Assembly: GCA_964618405.1 (NCBI GenBank)
Contig: CAZUAY010000001.1
Coordinates: 1-42,659 of the forward strand
Direction: 5' to 3'
DNA: 42,659 bases
Source of the DNA: an uncultured Lentisphaerales bacterium
GTDB lineage: Bacteria; Verrucomicrobiota; Kiritimatiellia; RFP12; UBA3636
Of this stretch, positions 35,447 to 39,433 are shown in pieces; positions within the stretch are counted from its first letter, which is position 1; every line of letters starts with the position of its first letter. Position numbers and translations under genes: made by a program. The notes beneath the pieces are model-generated. The model was not told the origin of the DNA. It did not search any database and saw only the letters and a list, made by a program, of their open reading frames with translations.

Positions 35447-35464
35447 CGCTTTAAGGAAAGCAAA

Positions 35465-36586
35465 ATGGAACCGATACAAAGCAGAGTTGTTCTCGACATC
35501 GATCTGAAAATTCTCGCGGAAAACTTCCGCAAAATATCGCAATCCGTATCACCCTTGAAGACCATCGTCGTCCTCAAGGCCAACGCCTACGGACTCGGCA
35601 TGATGCCAATCGCCCACGCACTTGCGGATGCTGGGGCCACCGCCATCGCAACGGCCGAAATCGCCGAAGCTCTCGCCGTCGCCGAGATCAACCTGCCGGT
35701 TATCCTCCTCGGCACCGTCTTGCCAAGCGAATTGAAATTAGCCCTGCGCGCAGGCATCCGAATTCCGGTCGCCGGGTTGGCAGAAGCGTCGATGATCAAC
35801 GAAATGGCAAGACAACTCGGCATGAAGGCGAAATGCCACATCGCCCTTGACACGGGTATGGGCCGCGTCGGCATACGCCTCGACGAGGCACTCACCATGA
35901 TCCTGCAAATAGCCGCACTCCCGCATCTCGAGCTCGAAGGTTTGTATTCTCACTTCCCATCCGCCTCTATCGAAAACGACGAGGGCACTCCGAAACAGAT
36001 CGAAGCTTTCAAGCGACTGGTCGCAGACCTGCGTGAGCGCGGCGTGTCCATCCCTTGGCTCCATATCGCCAACAGCGATGCCATCAACAACTTCCCCCCA
36101 GCGTGGCGGGCTCCATTCACGCATGTCCGCACGGGTATCAACCTCTATGGTTCTTTCGACAGCATCGGCAACCGTCGGCTGCATCTGCGCCCCGTGCTGA
36201 CGCTGCGTGCGCATCTCGCGCAAGTGCGTACGCTCACGGCGGGTAGCACCATTGGATACGGCCGCACCTTTGTCTGCCCTCGCGATATGCGCGTGGGTAC
36301 CGTAGCGGCTGGTTATGCCGACGGCATTCCCCTCGCACTCTCCAATCGCGGCAGCCTACTCATCCGGGGCCGCCTCTGTCGTGTGATCGGCCGCGTCTCG
36401 ATGGACTACACCAATGTAGCGCTTGACCCAGTCGATGACGCCGTCGCAGGCGACGACGTCATCTGCGTCGGAAGTGAAATGCCGAACGCTGCCTCGGTCG
36501 AAGACTGGGCAACGCTGAAAGGTACGCACCCCTACGAAGTCCTCTGCTCCATCGGCAGCCGCGTCCAGCGGCGCTACGTCGAGTAA
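35465..36586 (+). CDS. alr: Alanine racemase
   Basis: 373 aa. PLP-lysine motif VLKANAYGLG and a C-terminal beta domain with MDY. Confidence 0.92.
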   Translation: MEPIQSRVVLDIDLKILAENFRKISQSVSPLKTIVVLKANAYGLGMMPIAHALADAGATAIATAEIAEALAVAEINLPVILLGTVLPSELKLALRAGIRIPVAGLAEASMINEMARQLGMKAKCHIALDTGMGRVGIRLDEALTMILQIAALPHLELEGLYSHFPSASIENDEGTPKQIEAFKRLVADLRERGVSIPWLHIANSDAINNFPPAWRAPFTHVRTGINLYGSFDSIGNRRLHLRPVLTLRAHLAQVRTLTAGSTIGYGRTFVCPRDMRVGTVAAGYADGIPLALSNRGSLLIRGRLCRVIGRVSMDYTNVALDPVDDAVAGDDVICVGSEMPNAASVEDWATLKGTHPYEVLCSIGSRVQRRYVE

Positions 36587-36605
36587 TCTTCTTGCCGAGT
36601 GTTCT

Positions 36606-36632
36606 GTGCATGGGTGAACGGGGTGCAACTTG
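36606..36632 (+). repeat. REP-like unit upstream of the RAYT gene
   Basis: GTGCATGGGTGAACGGGGTGCAACTTG matches the GGTGCAACTTGCGCATGGGTGAGCGG units that are repeated downstream of the gene. Confidence 0.65.
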
Positions 36633-36696
36633 TTGGTTGATGGAACTGTGGGGTTTTGCTTGCAGTGCATTTTGAAGCGTAGTAGAATGCGGCAGT

Positions 36697-36740
36697 GTTG
36701 CAAAGCAAGTTGCATCAAGGCTGTTTACAGCCGCATCGCG
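36697..36740 (+). repeat. 44-bp direct repeat, copy 1 (5' leader of the RAYT gene)
   Basis: GTTGCAAAGCAAGTTGCATCAAGGCTGTTTACAGCCGCATCGCG. My manual alignment gives 37 of 44 identities with 37845-37888. It contains the hairpin GGCTG-TTTA-CAGCC. Confidence 0.75.
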
Positions 36741-36752
36741 AAGGAGGGAAAA

Positions 36753-37682
36753 ATGGAGCACAAGCTGCAAGGAATACGCAGCCAGTACCAAGACTACCGC
36801 GAGCCCAGCTTTTACATGGTAACGATGGCGACGTGGCAGCGGGTGCCGTTGCTCGCCACTTGCCATGCTAACACCTCATTTCCAACGGAGGACGGGCGGC
36901 TCGTCGAGGCGCTTTGGCGAGACATTCCCCGAACGTACCCGCAAGTGGAGGTTTCCACTTTTGTGCTCATGCCAGATCATTTTCACGGTATTGTCCGCGT
37001 GAAGGCGCACATGGAGAAGCCGTTGGGCGTACCGCTCAGGGCATTTAAATCTCAGGCGACAGGTGCCATCCGAAGGCGTCATGGCAATGAGACGATGGCG
37101 GTATGGACACCCGGTTACCACGATCTTTGCGTCTGGCGTCGTGGCTCTCTGGCGGCGTATACGAAATACATCCGCGACAACCCTCGGCGCTATTGCATGA
37201 AGAAGGCCGAACCTGAGTTGTTTACGCGCGAGAACAACTTGCGCCATGTGCGCTTGCCGGCGTCAGAGACTTGGGCAGGCTATGGCAATTTGTTTTTGCT
37301 TGATCGACCCGAAATGAGTTGCATTCAAATATCGCGGCGAGCATCAGAAGGTGAAATTGCAGAAACGAAGCGTTGTGTGTTGGCGGAGGTTGTACGTGGC
37401 GTGGTGGTAGTGTCTCCCTTCATTTCCCTGGGAGAGAAAGAAGTCGCAAGGGCTGTGCTAGAGAGCAAACGCGGAGATGTCATCTTGATGAAGCCAGAGG
37501 GATTCGGTCCGTATTTCAAGCCGCATGGGCACTACTTCGACCTTTGCGCACAAGGGCGCCTGCTGATTCTGGCGTGTCGCCCACCTGTTGAGGTGAAGAC
37601 CCCACTCACGCGGGATATGTGCCTCAGCATGAACGCATGGTGCAAGGCCCTTGTAGAAGGCGATGTGCTGGACCGCCTGTAA
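36753..37682 (+). CDS. REP-associated tyrosine transposase (RAYT / IS200-like Y1 HUH) with an additional C-terminal domain
   Basis: 309 aa from the ATG at 36753, preceded by the RBS AAGGAGGG. HUH motif MPDHFHGIV, then W.PGYHD and the catalytic-Tyr context YTKYIRDNPRR. Residues ~165-309 lie beyond the usual Y1 domain. Confidence 0.85.
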   Translation: MEHKLQGIRSQYQDYREPSFYMVTMATWQRVPLLATCHANTSFPTEDGRLVEALWRDIPRTYPQVEVSTFVLMPDHFHGIVRVKAHMEKPLGVPLRAFKSQATGAIRRRHGNETMAVWTPGYHDLCVWRRGSLAAYTKYIRDNPRRYCMKKAEPELFTRENNLRHVRLPASETWAGYGNLFLLDRPEMSCIQISRRASEGEIAETKRCVLAEVVRGVVVVSPFISLGEKEVARAVLESKRGDVILMKPEGFGPYFKPHGHYFDLCAQGRLLILACRPPVEVKTPLTRDMCLSMNAWCKALVEGDVLDRL

Positions 37683-37690
37683 ACAGGTGG

Positions 37691-37817
37691 GGTGCAACTT
37701 GCGCATGAGGGAGTGGGTGAGCACGGTTCCTATTGCATCGCCCGGCGTATCCCACGGTGCAACTTGCGCATGGGTGAGCGGGGTAGCCTGAGGCGGGGTG
37801 CAACGTGCGCATGAGGG
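37691..37817 (+). repeat. Three direct REP-like units downstream of the RAYT gene
   Basis: GGTGCAAC(T/G)TGCGCATG(A)GG starts at 37691, 37756 and 37797. Each holds a small palindromic core, TGCAA.TTGCG. Confidence 0.8.
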
Positions 37818-37844
37818 AGCAGGGTGGCGAGGTGTAGGAGCGTG

Positions 37845-37888
37845 GGTGCAAGGCGAGTCGCATCGAGCCTGTTTAGAGCCGCATCGCG
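37845..37888 (+). repeat. 44-bp direct repeat, copy 2
   Basis: GGTGCAAGGCGAGTCGCATCGAGCCTGTTTAGAGCCGCATCGCG, the partner of 36697-36740. Confidence 0.75.
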
Positions 37889-37945
37889 CGGATGGCGTGT
37901 AGCCAGAAAACGGCAAAAAAATTGGAAAAAACAGCTGCGAAGCTT

Positions 37946-38070
37946 GTAATCGGTCAGTGACGGGGGGGCCGTTCCCCGATGCCCATCTGGATGGGACCCT
38001 GTCGGCTCTTTCGCAGGAGCAGTACTCGCGACCAGCCACTCGCAACTCGCGACCGACTACCGCCTTCGCC
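37946..38070. repeat. Mosaic intergenic repeat locus D
   Basis: GTAATCGGTCAG at 37946-37957, G-run/C-run hairpins, and CCCATC-TG-GATGGG. Heptads from about 38023 read ACTCGCG ACCAGCC ACTCGCA ACTCGCG ACCGACT ACCGCCT. Confidence 0.7.
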
Positions 38071-38215
38071 CGTTTTTCTCTTGCCATTTTGGGGTCTAAT
38101 GCTGTATACTATTCTGGCGTTGGAGCTGACGGGCGGTTTTGTATCGCGTGAGCGCCGACGAGGAGATTAGTGCTGATGATCACAAAGCCGTTCATGCGTT
38201 CAAGAGGAAATCACG

Positions 38216-39433
38216 ATGATTAAGCGACCCGAAAGGAGCATCTCCGTATGGGGTGAATACGACGTAGCCGTTGCAGGGGGCGGCATCGCGGGTGTTGCGG
38301 CTGCATTGGCTGCGGCGCGCAATGGAGCTAAAGTATGCCTGATTGAGAAATATGCTGGCCTCGGCGGGTTAGCCACGCTGGGTCATGTGATCATTTATCT
38401 GCCGCTGTGTGATGGGCAGGGGCGTCAGGTCAGCTTCGGCATTGTTGAAGAGTTGTTGAAATTGCCGCTGCAATACAGCCCTTGCAAGCCTAATGGTGCT
38501 TGGGACTCTCCGTTGGAAGCCACTCCCGAAGCGCTTCGGAAGACGCGGTATCAGCTTCATTACGATCCTGGACCGATGTCGATCGGCCTCGATGCGGTTC
38601 TCGAGGCGGCGGGGGTGGAGATTATCTTCGATACGCTCATTGTCGATGTGGTGAAAGCTTCGAATGGAGCGATTACGCATCTCGTGGTAGAGAACAAGTC
38701 GGGTTGCGGCGCGTTTGCGGTTCAATCCGTCGTCGATTGCACGGGCGAGGCGGACGTTTGCCACCTGTGCGGCGAAGAAACCGAAACCTACACGAAGAAC
38801 GTGAGAAGTGCTTGGTATTACAATGTTGATGAAGAACGTAAGCTCACGCTCGGTTATGCGGTTGATGATTATTCGAAGGTAGATGACTATCCAGACATGA
38901 TGCGTTTTGACGGCACGGATTGGCGCTCAGTATCGCGGCAGATTATCGAGTCGCGTAAGCTGATTGTTGAAAATGTCGCGATACTCAACGAGCACCGACA
39001 GGAAACGGGCCTTTCGCCGCTGTATCCGTTCTATGTGCCCTATTTTCATGGTTTTCGTAGGACCCGCCACCTTGTCTCCGATTATGTGATGACGCCTGCG
39101 GATCTGCATCGGTGGCATGAAGACGCCGTAGGGATCTTTTCGGACTGGCGGAAGGCTGGGCCGGTCTATTCGCTACCACTGCGTTCGTTGCTGGCCGTCA
39201 AGACCCCCAATCTCGCTACGGCGGGGCGTTGTATTTCGTCGACAGGCGATACGTGGGACATCACGCGTGTGATCCCCGTTTGTGCGGTGTCTGGCGAGGC
39301 AGCGGGAACCGCGGCGGCGATGGCCGTTGTGGCGGGATGTAACCTGCGCACGCTGCCTATCGGGCTTCTGCAGTCTAGGCTTGCCCAGAACGGGGTCGTG
39401 CTCGATCCCGCTTTCGTTAAGGAAATCGCGTAG
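38216..39433 (+). CDS. FAD-dependent oxidoreductase (FAD_oxidored/GIDA-like fold)
   Basis: 405 aa. Dinucleotide-binding motif VAVAGGGIAGVAAALAAARNGAKVCLIEK, and a C-terminal GEAAGTAAA typical of this family. Confidence 0.8.
   Translation: MIKRPERSISVWGEYDVAVAGGGIAGVAAALAAARNGAKVCLIEKYAGLGGLATLGHVIIYLPLCDGQGRQVSFGIVEELLKLPLQYSPCKPNGAWDSPLEATPEALRKTRYQLHYDPGPMSIGLDAVLEAAGVEIIFDTLIVDVVKASNGAITHLVVENKSGCGAFAVQSVVDCTGEADVCHLCGEETETYTKNVRSAWYYNVDEERKLTLGYAVDDYSKVDDYPDMMRFDGTDWRSVSRQIIESRKLIVENVAILNEHRQETGLSPLYPFYVPYFHGFRRTRHLVSDYVMTPADLHRWHEDAVGIFSDWRKAGPVYSLPLRSLLAVKTPNLATAGRCISSTGDTWDITRVIPVCAVSGEAAGTAAAMAVVAGCNLRTLPIGLLQSRLAQNGVVLDPAFVKEIA

Follow-up and report, generated by a model that had tools for sequence, protein, structure and literature searches.

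The subject of this study is a RAYT-like gene and the hairpin repeats that surround it in a window of 42,659 nucleotides (nt), i.e., the whole stretch of DNA that was analyzed, which covers positions 1 to 42,659 of contig CAZUAY010000001.1 from an uncultured Lentisphaerales bacterium (assembly GCA_964618405.1). The coding sequence (CDS; 36753-37682, + strand) specifies a protein of 309 amino acids (aa), and an AAGGAGG Shine-Dalgarno sequence (36741-36747) lies 5 nt before its ATG. We consider it reasonably probable that the locus is a REPtron-type unit, namely, a resident and vertically inherited gene, one per type, that sits between two inverted doublets of a private hairpin. REPtrons consist of a TnpA-REP gene flanked by inverted pairs of repetitive extragenic palindromes (REPs) or bacterial interspersed mosaic elements (BIMEs) (Quentin 2018, PMC6006769).

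The sequence-only reading that had drawn attention to this gene described one repeat unit upstream and three downstream, all in the same orientation, together with a separate 44-bp direct repeat, and it took this layout for a departure from the inverted REPs that flank classical RAYT genes. The units themselves were readily recovered: GGTGCAACTTGCGCATG occurs at 37691, 37756, and 37797 (with 0, 0, and 1 mismatch, respectively), always on the + strand, i.e., three matches versus 0.21 expected (at least three in 0/100 shuffles), and a partial copy, GGTGCAACTTG, lies upstream at 36622-36632, preceded at 36605-36619 by TGTGCATGGGTGAAC, which resembles the tail of the unit. The direct repeat likewise held, as a 42-nt match between 36699-36740 and 37847-37888 (86% identical; z = 18.7 versus shuffles), and the homology continues in the 5' direction for another ~20 nt and enters the -10 region (GTAGAAT versus GTAGGA). 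Overlooked at that stage was that 36705-36733, inside the "44-mer," and 37674-37702, i.e., the stop-codon hairpin plus the first downstream unit, form an inverted repeat of 29 nt (79% complementary). We aligned the units of the source genome (G000), a same-genus genome (G001), and a metagenome contig (L032) after reverse-complementing the leader copies; the G001 and L032 orthologs are both 83% identical to the G000 protein. This alignment yielded a common element, which comprises a stem of 5 to 7 bp, a T(A/G)AA loop, ~4 nt, and then a foot, TGCAACTTGC, and whose stems show compensatory changes across the three sources (GCCTG/CAGGC, GCTTG/CAAGC, and GGCTG/CAGCC). The 44-mer and the GGTGCAACTTG unit are thus one and the same element in two orientations, L (inverted) and R (+); the inverted pair L/R1 therefore brackets the CDS, and two inverted doublets bracket the locus as a whole. 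The layout that had seemed to depart from classical flanking is thus that of a REPtron, since the 44-mer represents an inverted unit. Read along the + strand, the order is R0 (+), a presumed promoter, L (-), the CDS, R1, R2, and R3 (all +), and a second inverted unit, L' (-). The pairs R0/L and R1 to R3/L' form two BIME- or REPIN-like inverted doublets that stand in direct orientation to each other, and L and L' are closer to each other than to the R units.

The individual units differ in their state of preservation. R0 (36605-36632, + strand) consists of the tail TGTGCATGGGTGAAC and the foot GGGGTGCAACTTG; its hairpin has been lost in G000 and is intact in the relatives. L (36699-36740, - strand) lies in the presumed 5' leader and ends 12 nt before the ATG, with its foot, GCAAGTTGCA, at 36705-36714 (- strand) and its hairpin, GGCTG-TTTA-CAGCC, at 36719-36732, ~25 nt before the ATG; as had been stated, this hairpin is intact only in the upstream copy of the direct repeat. 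R1 (37673-37713, + strand) comprises the hairpin CCGCCTG-TAAA-CAGGTGG (37673-37690), the first three loop bases of which are the stop codon TAA (37680-37682), followed by GGGG, the foot TGCAACTTGC (37693-37702), and a tail. R2 (37756-37779, + strand) is a foot-only R copy, GGTGCAACTTGCGCATGGGTGAGC, without a hairpin, and R3 (37785-37820, + strand) combines a collapsed hairpin (AGCCTG....AGGCGG) with the foot GGGGTGCAACGTGCGCATGAGGGAGC. The downstream doublet is closed by L' (37847-37888, - strand), the hairpin of which is broken in G000 (GCCTG-TTTA-GAGCC) and intact in G001. TRF called no tandem array in G000, because the spacing of the units is irregular. Within the upstream doublet, a putative promoter, TTGCAG-17 nt-TAGAAT (36660-36688, + strand), would drive the gene; a sigma-70 consensus scan did not call it, because its -35 element fits the consensus at only 3/6 positions, and both G001 and L032 have conserved TAGAAT and the sequence around it. 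After L' there follows an A-rich noncoding tail (37889-37945; GGATGGCGTGTAGCCAGAAAACGGCAAAAAAATTGGAAAAAACAGCTGCGAAGCTT), which is conserved with G001 and could be a 3' untranslated region, a small RNA, or an UP-like element.

Same-site relatives carry the gene together with the repeats. In G001, the ortholog is found at the same place, R0 is intact (CCGCCTG-TGAA-CAGGCGG plus foot), the L hairpin is deleted, and R1 is intact and has TGA as the stop codon within its loop; tandem 26-nt foot units, six or more in number, continue across a break between contigs, from the end of C53 to the start of C85, and an intact L' hairpin is followed by the same A-rich tail as in G000. L032 carries R0, L, and R1, and the R0 hairpin and foot occupy the same position in both relatives (CCGCCTGTGAACAGGCGG and CCGCTTGTGAACAAGCGG in G001 and L032). 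Decay is complementary between the two genomes: G000 retains the L hairpin, which G001 has lost by deletion, and G001 retains the L' hairpin, which is broken in G000. Each of them has one or more good R hairpins and one or more good L hairpins. R2 and R3 are foot-only copies that arose by genus-specific local amplification. At a more distant locus (L037, OW818680.1; 56% identity), ~29-nt foot-containing tandem units (GGCAAGTCGGGCTTCCTGCACCGCCACAC) follow the stop-codon hairpin and parallel the foot amplification of G000 and G001.

To the conserved layout is added a pattern of constraint. Between G000 and G001, the ratio of nonsynonymous to synonymous substitution rates (dN/dS) of the RAYT-like gene is 0.10 (dS 0.98), compared with 0.085 for rpoN and 0.11 for alr. 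Over the same distance, identity amounts to 88% for the noncoding stretch of promoter and L and to 89%, over 118 aligned nt, for L' with its tail. Such noncoding identity at a dS of ~1, i.e., at saturation, is much higher than neutral sites would retain, and the units are therefore under selection rather than relics. The orthologs adjoin alr in G001, L032, the P0002 contig, and L149 (a Logan contig of the nearest strain), and all four C1-type orthologs are found at the alr locus. From these comparisons, the gene is vertically inherited and co-diverges with rpoN and alr under purifying selection.

Classical REPs are dispersed; the present hairpins have not spread and are kept only at this locus. 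G000 is a 3.8-Mb metagenome-assembled genome (MAG; 397 contigs, 92% complete), and neither exact and mismatch scans of the rest of the window and the rest of the assembly nor an nhmmer profile search of the MAG returned a unit beyond the locus itself. The statement that the unit is absent elsewhere in the window is thereby borne out and extends to the genome. Consistently, each 16-mer of the unit occurs only once or twice in the genome, and the closed 6.1-Mb chromosome of a relative with 57% identity holds the L unit exactly twice, one on each side of the gene. We therefore rejected genome-wide REP status for the unit on the strength of the scans, the profile search, the 16-mer counts, and the closed chromosome. 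Non-dispersal has precedent, because RAYT groups 1 and 4 have few copies of their flanking repeats or lack abundant REPINs (Bertels 2017, PMC5581495).

Immediately beyond the A-rich tail, modules of another kind occupy 37946-38053, namely, GTAATCGGTCAGTGACGGGGGG (~82 BLAST copies) and an 80-nt module (~30 copies). These modules contain the sole abundant 16-mer that flanks the gene, GTAATCGGTCAGTGAC (121 copies), the 12-mer of which, GTAATCGGTCAG, occurs in 369 exact copies distributed over 220 contigs. They constitute an unrelated, later insertion of ~110 nt relative to the orthologous G001 locus. A tie between GTAATCGGTCAG and RAYT-like genes was considered and rejected, as the 12-mer lies near 2/9 paralogs, i.e., at about the chance level, and the modules are absent from the G001 locus.

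The hairpins follow a syntax that is shared by loci whose proteins are 52 to 89% identical to one another, as tabulated for 31 anchored units from 14 loci. More specifically, (i) a hairpin with a T(A/G)AA loop lies 80 to 220 nt before the ATG; (ii) a TT(C/T)A-loop hairpin precedes the ATG, with its loop 23 to 30 nt before it at 6 loci and at -8, -74, and -93 elsewhere; (iii) a T(A/G)AA-loop hairpin contains the stop codon at 6 loci; and (iv) a TTTA-loop hairpin follows 36 to 80 nt after the gene. The foot, which contains AACT(T)G, lies 8 to 12 nt 3' of the hairpin. All four hairpin positions are present in Prevotella L053, the protein of which is only 38% identical, and a downstream L' also exists in relatives at 37 to 57% identity. 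Enrichment over the CDS control was specific in both orientation and position: T(A/G)AA hairpins at the stop codon were found at 5 loci in 4 kb versus 3 in 87 kb of CDS control (>30-fold), and TT(C/T)A hairpins just upstream of the gene at 9 loci in 10 kb versus 8 in 87 kb of CDS (~10-fold). Furthermore, the type of hairpin follows the protein clade (58 to 89% identity within and 29 to 48% between clades), as is expected of a protein and its cognate site. Among 90 family loci, significant upstream/downstream repeats were direct in 24 and inverted in 15.

The second doublet could have another origin, in that L', with part of the promoter, might be the remnant of a tandem duplication of an R-promoter-L-gene module whose second CDS was lost or replaced, much as the degraded second copy proposed in the sequence-only reading. 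The extension of the L/L' homology for ~20 nt past the 42-mer into the -10 region fits such an event, as do a copy of the promoter module (GGTAGAATAGGGCGGCAT) that follows R1 in L032, ahead of a nitroreductase gene, and a whole 141-nt doublet on both sides of the gene in Prevotella L053. We nevertheless judge this origin unlikely: the second CDS leaves no trace, L' and its 60-nt tail are 89% conserved at saturated synonymous divergence and hence maintained, and L' is found downstream in the distant relatives mentioned above. The duplication addresses where the second doublet came from and not what it is, and it is compatible with a REPtron-type unit.

The encoded protein is RAYT-like, with an addition. 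It is predicted, from profile matches and a structure model, to be a Y1 HUH domain of the TnpA-REP (RAYT) type, i.e., a nuclease/ligase for single-stranded DNA (residues ~1-155), fused to a DprA-like Rossmann domain (residues ~160-305). The motifs by which the gene had been recognized as a Y1/HUH transposase are present (PDHFHGIV, aa 74-81; VWTPGYHD, aa 117-124; YIRDNPRR, aa 139-146), and the catalytic residues H76, H78, Y139, and N143 are invariant across 42 aligned family sequences. The Y motif, YIRDNP, belongs to class 2, i.e., Y...NP, the RAYT type, as distinct from the Y...Q of IS200 (Quentin 2018, PMC6006769). Likewise, the NCBIfam model REP_Tyr_transpos (NF047646) matched 42/42 members, albeit below its cutoff (best E-value 2.5e-16), whereas the NCBIfam IS200 model gave 12 bits for the 309-aa protein and matched only 2/42 members; Pfam Y1_Tnp scored 20.4 bits against a gathering score of 23. 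The top match in a PDB profile search was E. coli TnpA-REP (4er8; E = 1.5e-4), and residues ~167-270 matched DprA at an E-value of ~7e-3. Using the AlphaFold model (predicted local distance difference test, pLDDT, 92; predicted template modeling score, pTM, 0.82), Foldseek aligned the N-terminal half with Y1 transposases (E ~1e-6), with the lowest root-mean-square deviation (rmsd), 2.8 Å, for 4er8, and the C-terminal half with Helicobacter pylori DprA (4ljr, 4ljk, and 5mll; E 1e-4 to 1e-3, rmsd ~4.5 Å) and also with ShosA. The earlier call of a RAYT-type gene is therefore well founded on motifs, family profile, and best-fitting fold. No Pfam family, including DNA_processg_A, matched the C-terminal half in any of the 42 members (E <= 0.01). 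Literature searches returned no description of a fusion between RAYT or Y1 and DprA, and DprA goes unmentioned in Quentin 2018 (PMC6006769); a RAYT-like subfamily with a DprA-like fusion apparently has not been described so far. Species-representative genomes from the Kiritimatiellia, Lentisphaerae, Verrucomicrobia, and Bacteroidales contain no fewer than 536 loci of this subfamily, and it has a cultured carrier, Prevotella lacticifex JCM 34664 (L059).

Given the Y1 fold, we asked how well an IS200/IS605-like insertion accounts for the locus. L/L' and R0/R1 would then be subterminal hairpins of an element that moves as a single-stranded circle by peel-and-paste, as the ends of such elements are established to carry similar same-strand hairpins (structures 2vjv and 2xm3). 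In keeping with this, the direct repeats at the 24/90 loci bracket the gene tightly, the upstream one often ending immediately before the ATG and the downstream one reaching over the stop codon, and the order of the gene and the nitroreductase gene is swapped between two relatives with 90% identical proteins. We regard such an insertion as improbable on several grounds. No near-identical copies were seen in any genome examined, and an active insertion sequence was rejected for this reason. The orthologs stay by alr across a dS of ~1 and evolve like housekeeping genes, the Y motif is of class 2 rather than Y...Q (Quentin 2018, PMC6006769), and the IS200 model reaches only 2/42 members. The direct pairs L/L' and R0/R1 fit subterminal hairpins and, just as well, the arms of the two inverted doublets. 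IS608 and ISDra2 do share with this locus the Y1 HUH fold and, on the former view of these pairs, same-strand hairpins near both gene ends, but here multicopy near-identical elements are lacking, the chromosomal position is conserved, the motif is a class-2 Y...NP, and the protein, at 309 aa, is twice the size of their TnpA (~130-155 aa; Y...Q). The cassette-like insertion suggested earlier stands as a minority possibility; gene order around the gene does differ among close relatives.

G000 contains ~8 paralogs of the gene (29 to 55% protein identity), several of which have their own, different repeat arrays (e.g., on contigs C183 and C37). The paralog at C183:1250-3150 is accompanied by a direct repeat of ~95 to 200 nt with a run of N within the array, and that at C37:7560-9300 by a 77-nt unit with CTTGCGGGCTGTCTCAGCCGGCAAG hairpins, modules of whose array are found on ~10 other contigs; the C37 repeats are thus mildly dispersed. 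Two genomes of another genus in the same family (G010 and G015) have 16 to 20 protein-family matches each, which is an unusually large set of RAYT-like paralogs. Within them, paralogs are at most 76% identical in DNA, and orthologs between them are syntenic and 90 to 97% identical. As the paralogs are all diverged, there are no recently transposed copies.

The position of the hairpins raises the alternative that the repeats are purely regulatory, i.e., operators or RNA elements for transcription, translation, or mRNA stability of the gene and its neighbor, and not cleavage substrates. L lies between the presumed -10 element and the Shine-Dalgarno sequence and R1 over the stop codon, the core TGCAA(C/G)TTGCA is a 4+1+4 palindrome, REPs are known stabilizers of mRNA, and the conserved noncoding tail after L' is otherwise unexplained. 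An exclusively regulatory role nonetheless seems doubtful to us, and slightly more so than either alternative above, because the type of hairpin varies with the clade in a family of hairpin-binding nucleases whose catalytic residues are invariant, and an operator function does not readily account for the tandem foot-only copies downstream (3 in G000 and at least 6 in G001). Nor did Rfam contain a family matching the repeats.

The surroundings of the gene vary among close relatives. A segment comprising alr and its 17-nt leader (window 35447-36604) is precisely inverted in G000 relative to G001, G002, L032, and the P0002 contig (compared alr regions: L023 9500-10700 and L147 3780-4920), with the orientation of rpoN and of the RAYT-like gene unchanged. 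The G000 orientation recurs in the independent contig L149, from a near-identical strain. No inverted repeats were seen at the inversion breakpoints, and the right one lies ~20 nt from the remodeled R0. A Fer4-nitroreductase gene is absent from G000, G001, and G002, follows the RAYT-like gene in L032, and precedes it in the P0002 contig. On the downstream side, 38073-38215 holds a promoter (TTGCCA-18-TATACT), a leader, and codons 1 to 10 of a serine-hydrolase-like gene, which form a stub before the ATG of an FAD-oxidoreductase gene at 38216; the serine-hydrolase-like gene is intact in L032. The FAD-oxidoreductase gene is absent from G001 and G002, and its orthologs in other genera have no RAYT-like neighbor. 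In a search for an empty site, the contig of G002 (a MAG that is 59% complete) ended in other dispersed repeats. Such variation could be ordinary flux or a hint of local recombination promoted by the module. A role of the Y1-DprA protein, together with its private doublets, in local recombination of single strands, as a module that captures, swaps, or inverts adjacent genes, i.e., an integron-like platform driven by an HUH enzyme and not a disperser of repeats, is hinted at by the differing accessory genes on both sides, the promoter copy ahead of the L032 neighbor, and the precise inversion of alr next to R0, and we hold it to be highly improbable.

Several observations weigh against the REPtron-type reading that we prefer. 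Genome-wide dispersal, the defining property of REPs, is missing, and since the MAG is fragmented, unit copies at contig ends might escape detection. The REP_Tyr_transpos score of the protein is 52.6 bits, under the curated 80-bit cutoff. The hairpins are thermodynamically unremarkable (z of ~-1 to +0.6), and the case for them therefore rests on comparative data, since thermodynamic support is not significant. In the table of 31 units, stems were chosen for pairing, such that their 100% pairing is partly by construction, and a loop-agnostic foldback search (z > 6) did not separate the flanks from the control (14/90 upstream, 20/87 downstream, and 11/92 CDS control). The T(A/G)AA grammar is limited to the clade of at least 52% identity plus a few others. 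Finally, in L149 (SRR34069003, 239-1165), the gene is apparently frameshifted by indels (e.g., ACTTGGGC to ACTGGGC), with a called product of 187 aa that is 94% identical over that length; this reflects either true pseudogenization or an assembly error.

Comparison with known systems places the locus near RAYTs, with differences. The REPtron of E. coli TnpA-REP (RAYT, YafM; 4er8) was reportedly characterized by Ton-Hoang and by Messing in 2012. It resembles our locus in having a vertically inherited Y1 HUH gene, one per type, and inverted pairs of hairpin plus foot in two subtypes (Y and Z2); our L and R subtypes are comparable to the Y and Z REPs of BIMEs. In contrast to the hundreds of REPs in E. 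coli, there are 0 copies elsewhere here; the GT[AG]G foot is absent, and what is conserved instead is the T(A/G)AA loop together with an AACTTGC foot on the 3' side; the stop codon is contained in one hairpin, and another is situated in the leader; and the protein has an extra DprA-like domain of ~150 aa and scores under the RAYT cutoff. The Pseudomonas RAYT/REPIN systems (Bertels and Rainey 2011, PMC3116915; Bertels 2017, PMC5581495) are alike in their REPIN doublets on both sides, diverged paralogs with their own repeats, and housekeeping-like evolution, and unlike in that unit 16-mers have 1 to 2 copies here and relatives carry up to 16 to 20 paralogs per genome. TnpA-Y1 subclasses 2.1 and 2.3 (Quentin 2018, PMC6006769) likewise combine a class-2 core with a large C-terminal domain and no dispersed REPs; however, they have NH[VYF]H with YIELNP or YVDLNP rather than DH[FL]H with YI.DNP, and our family is distinguished by its taxa (the Planctomycetes-Verrucomicrobia-Chlamydiae group and Bacteroidales) and its local hairpin doublets. 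With H. pylori DprA (4ljr/4ljk/5mll), the C-terminal half shares a predicted Rossmann fold, but here that fold is joined to a nuclease, and no Pfam DprA match was obtained in 42 members.

If the locus is indeed a REPtron-type unit, the Y1 domain would recognize the T(A/G)AA hairpin in single-stranded DNA, on the top strand at the R units and on the bottom strand at the L units, and would cut and rejoin near the conserved AACT(T)G foot, which by analogy is a candidate cut site; E. coli TnpA-REP is said to cleave at CT, according to the 2012 work of Ton-Hoang. The DprA-like domain may hold single-stranded DNA or recruit RecA, and occupancy of L and R1 may feed back on the expression of the gene itself. 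Autoregulation of this kind is probable, because hairpins extend over both the leader and the stop codon.

RAYTs are the standard example of "domesticated transposases," whose value to the host has yet to be explained. The family described here departs from the classical RAYT in three respects: (i) the fusion to a DprA-like domain, i.e., one related to a single-strand-DNA/RecA loader; (ii) hairpins that are maintained by selection only at their own gene; and (iii) the weaving of these hairpins into the leader and the stop codon. The cultured Prevotella carrier makes both biochemistry and genetics feasible. Maintenance of a RAYT is here set apart from proliferation of REPs, which points to a job at, or from, its own locus, be it autoregulation, local recombination, or the processing of single-stranded DNA.

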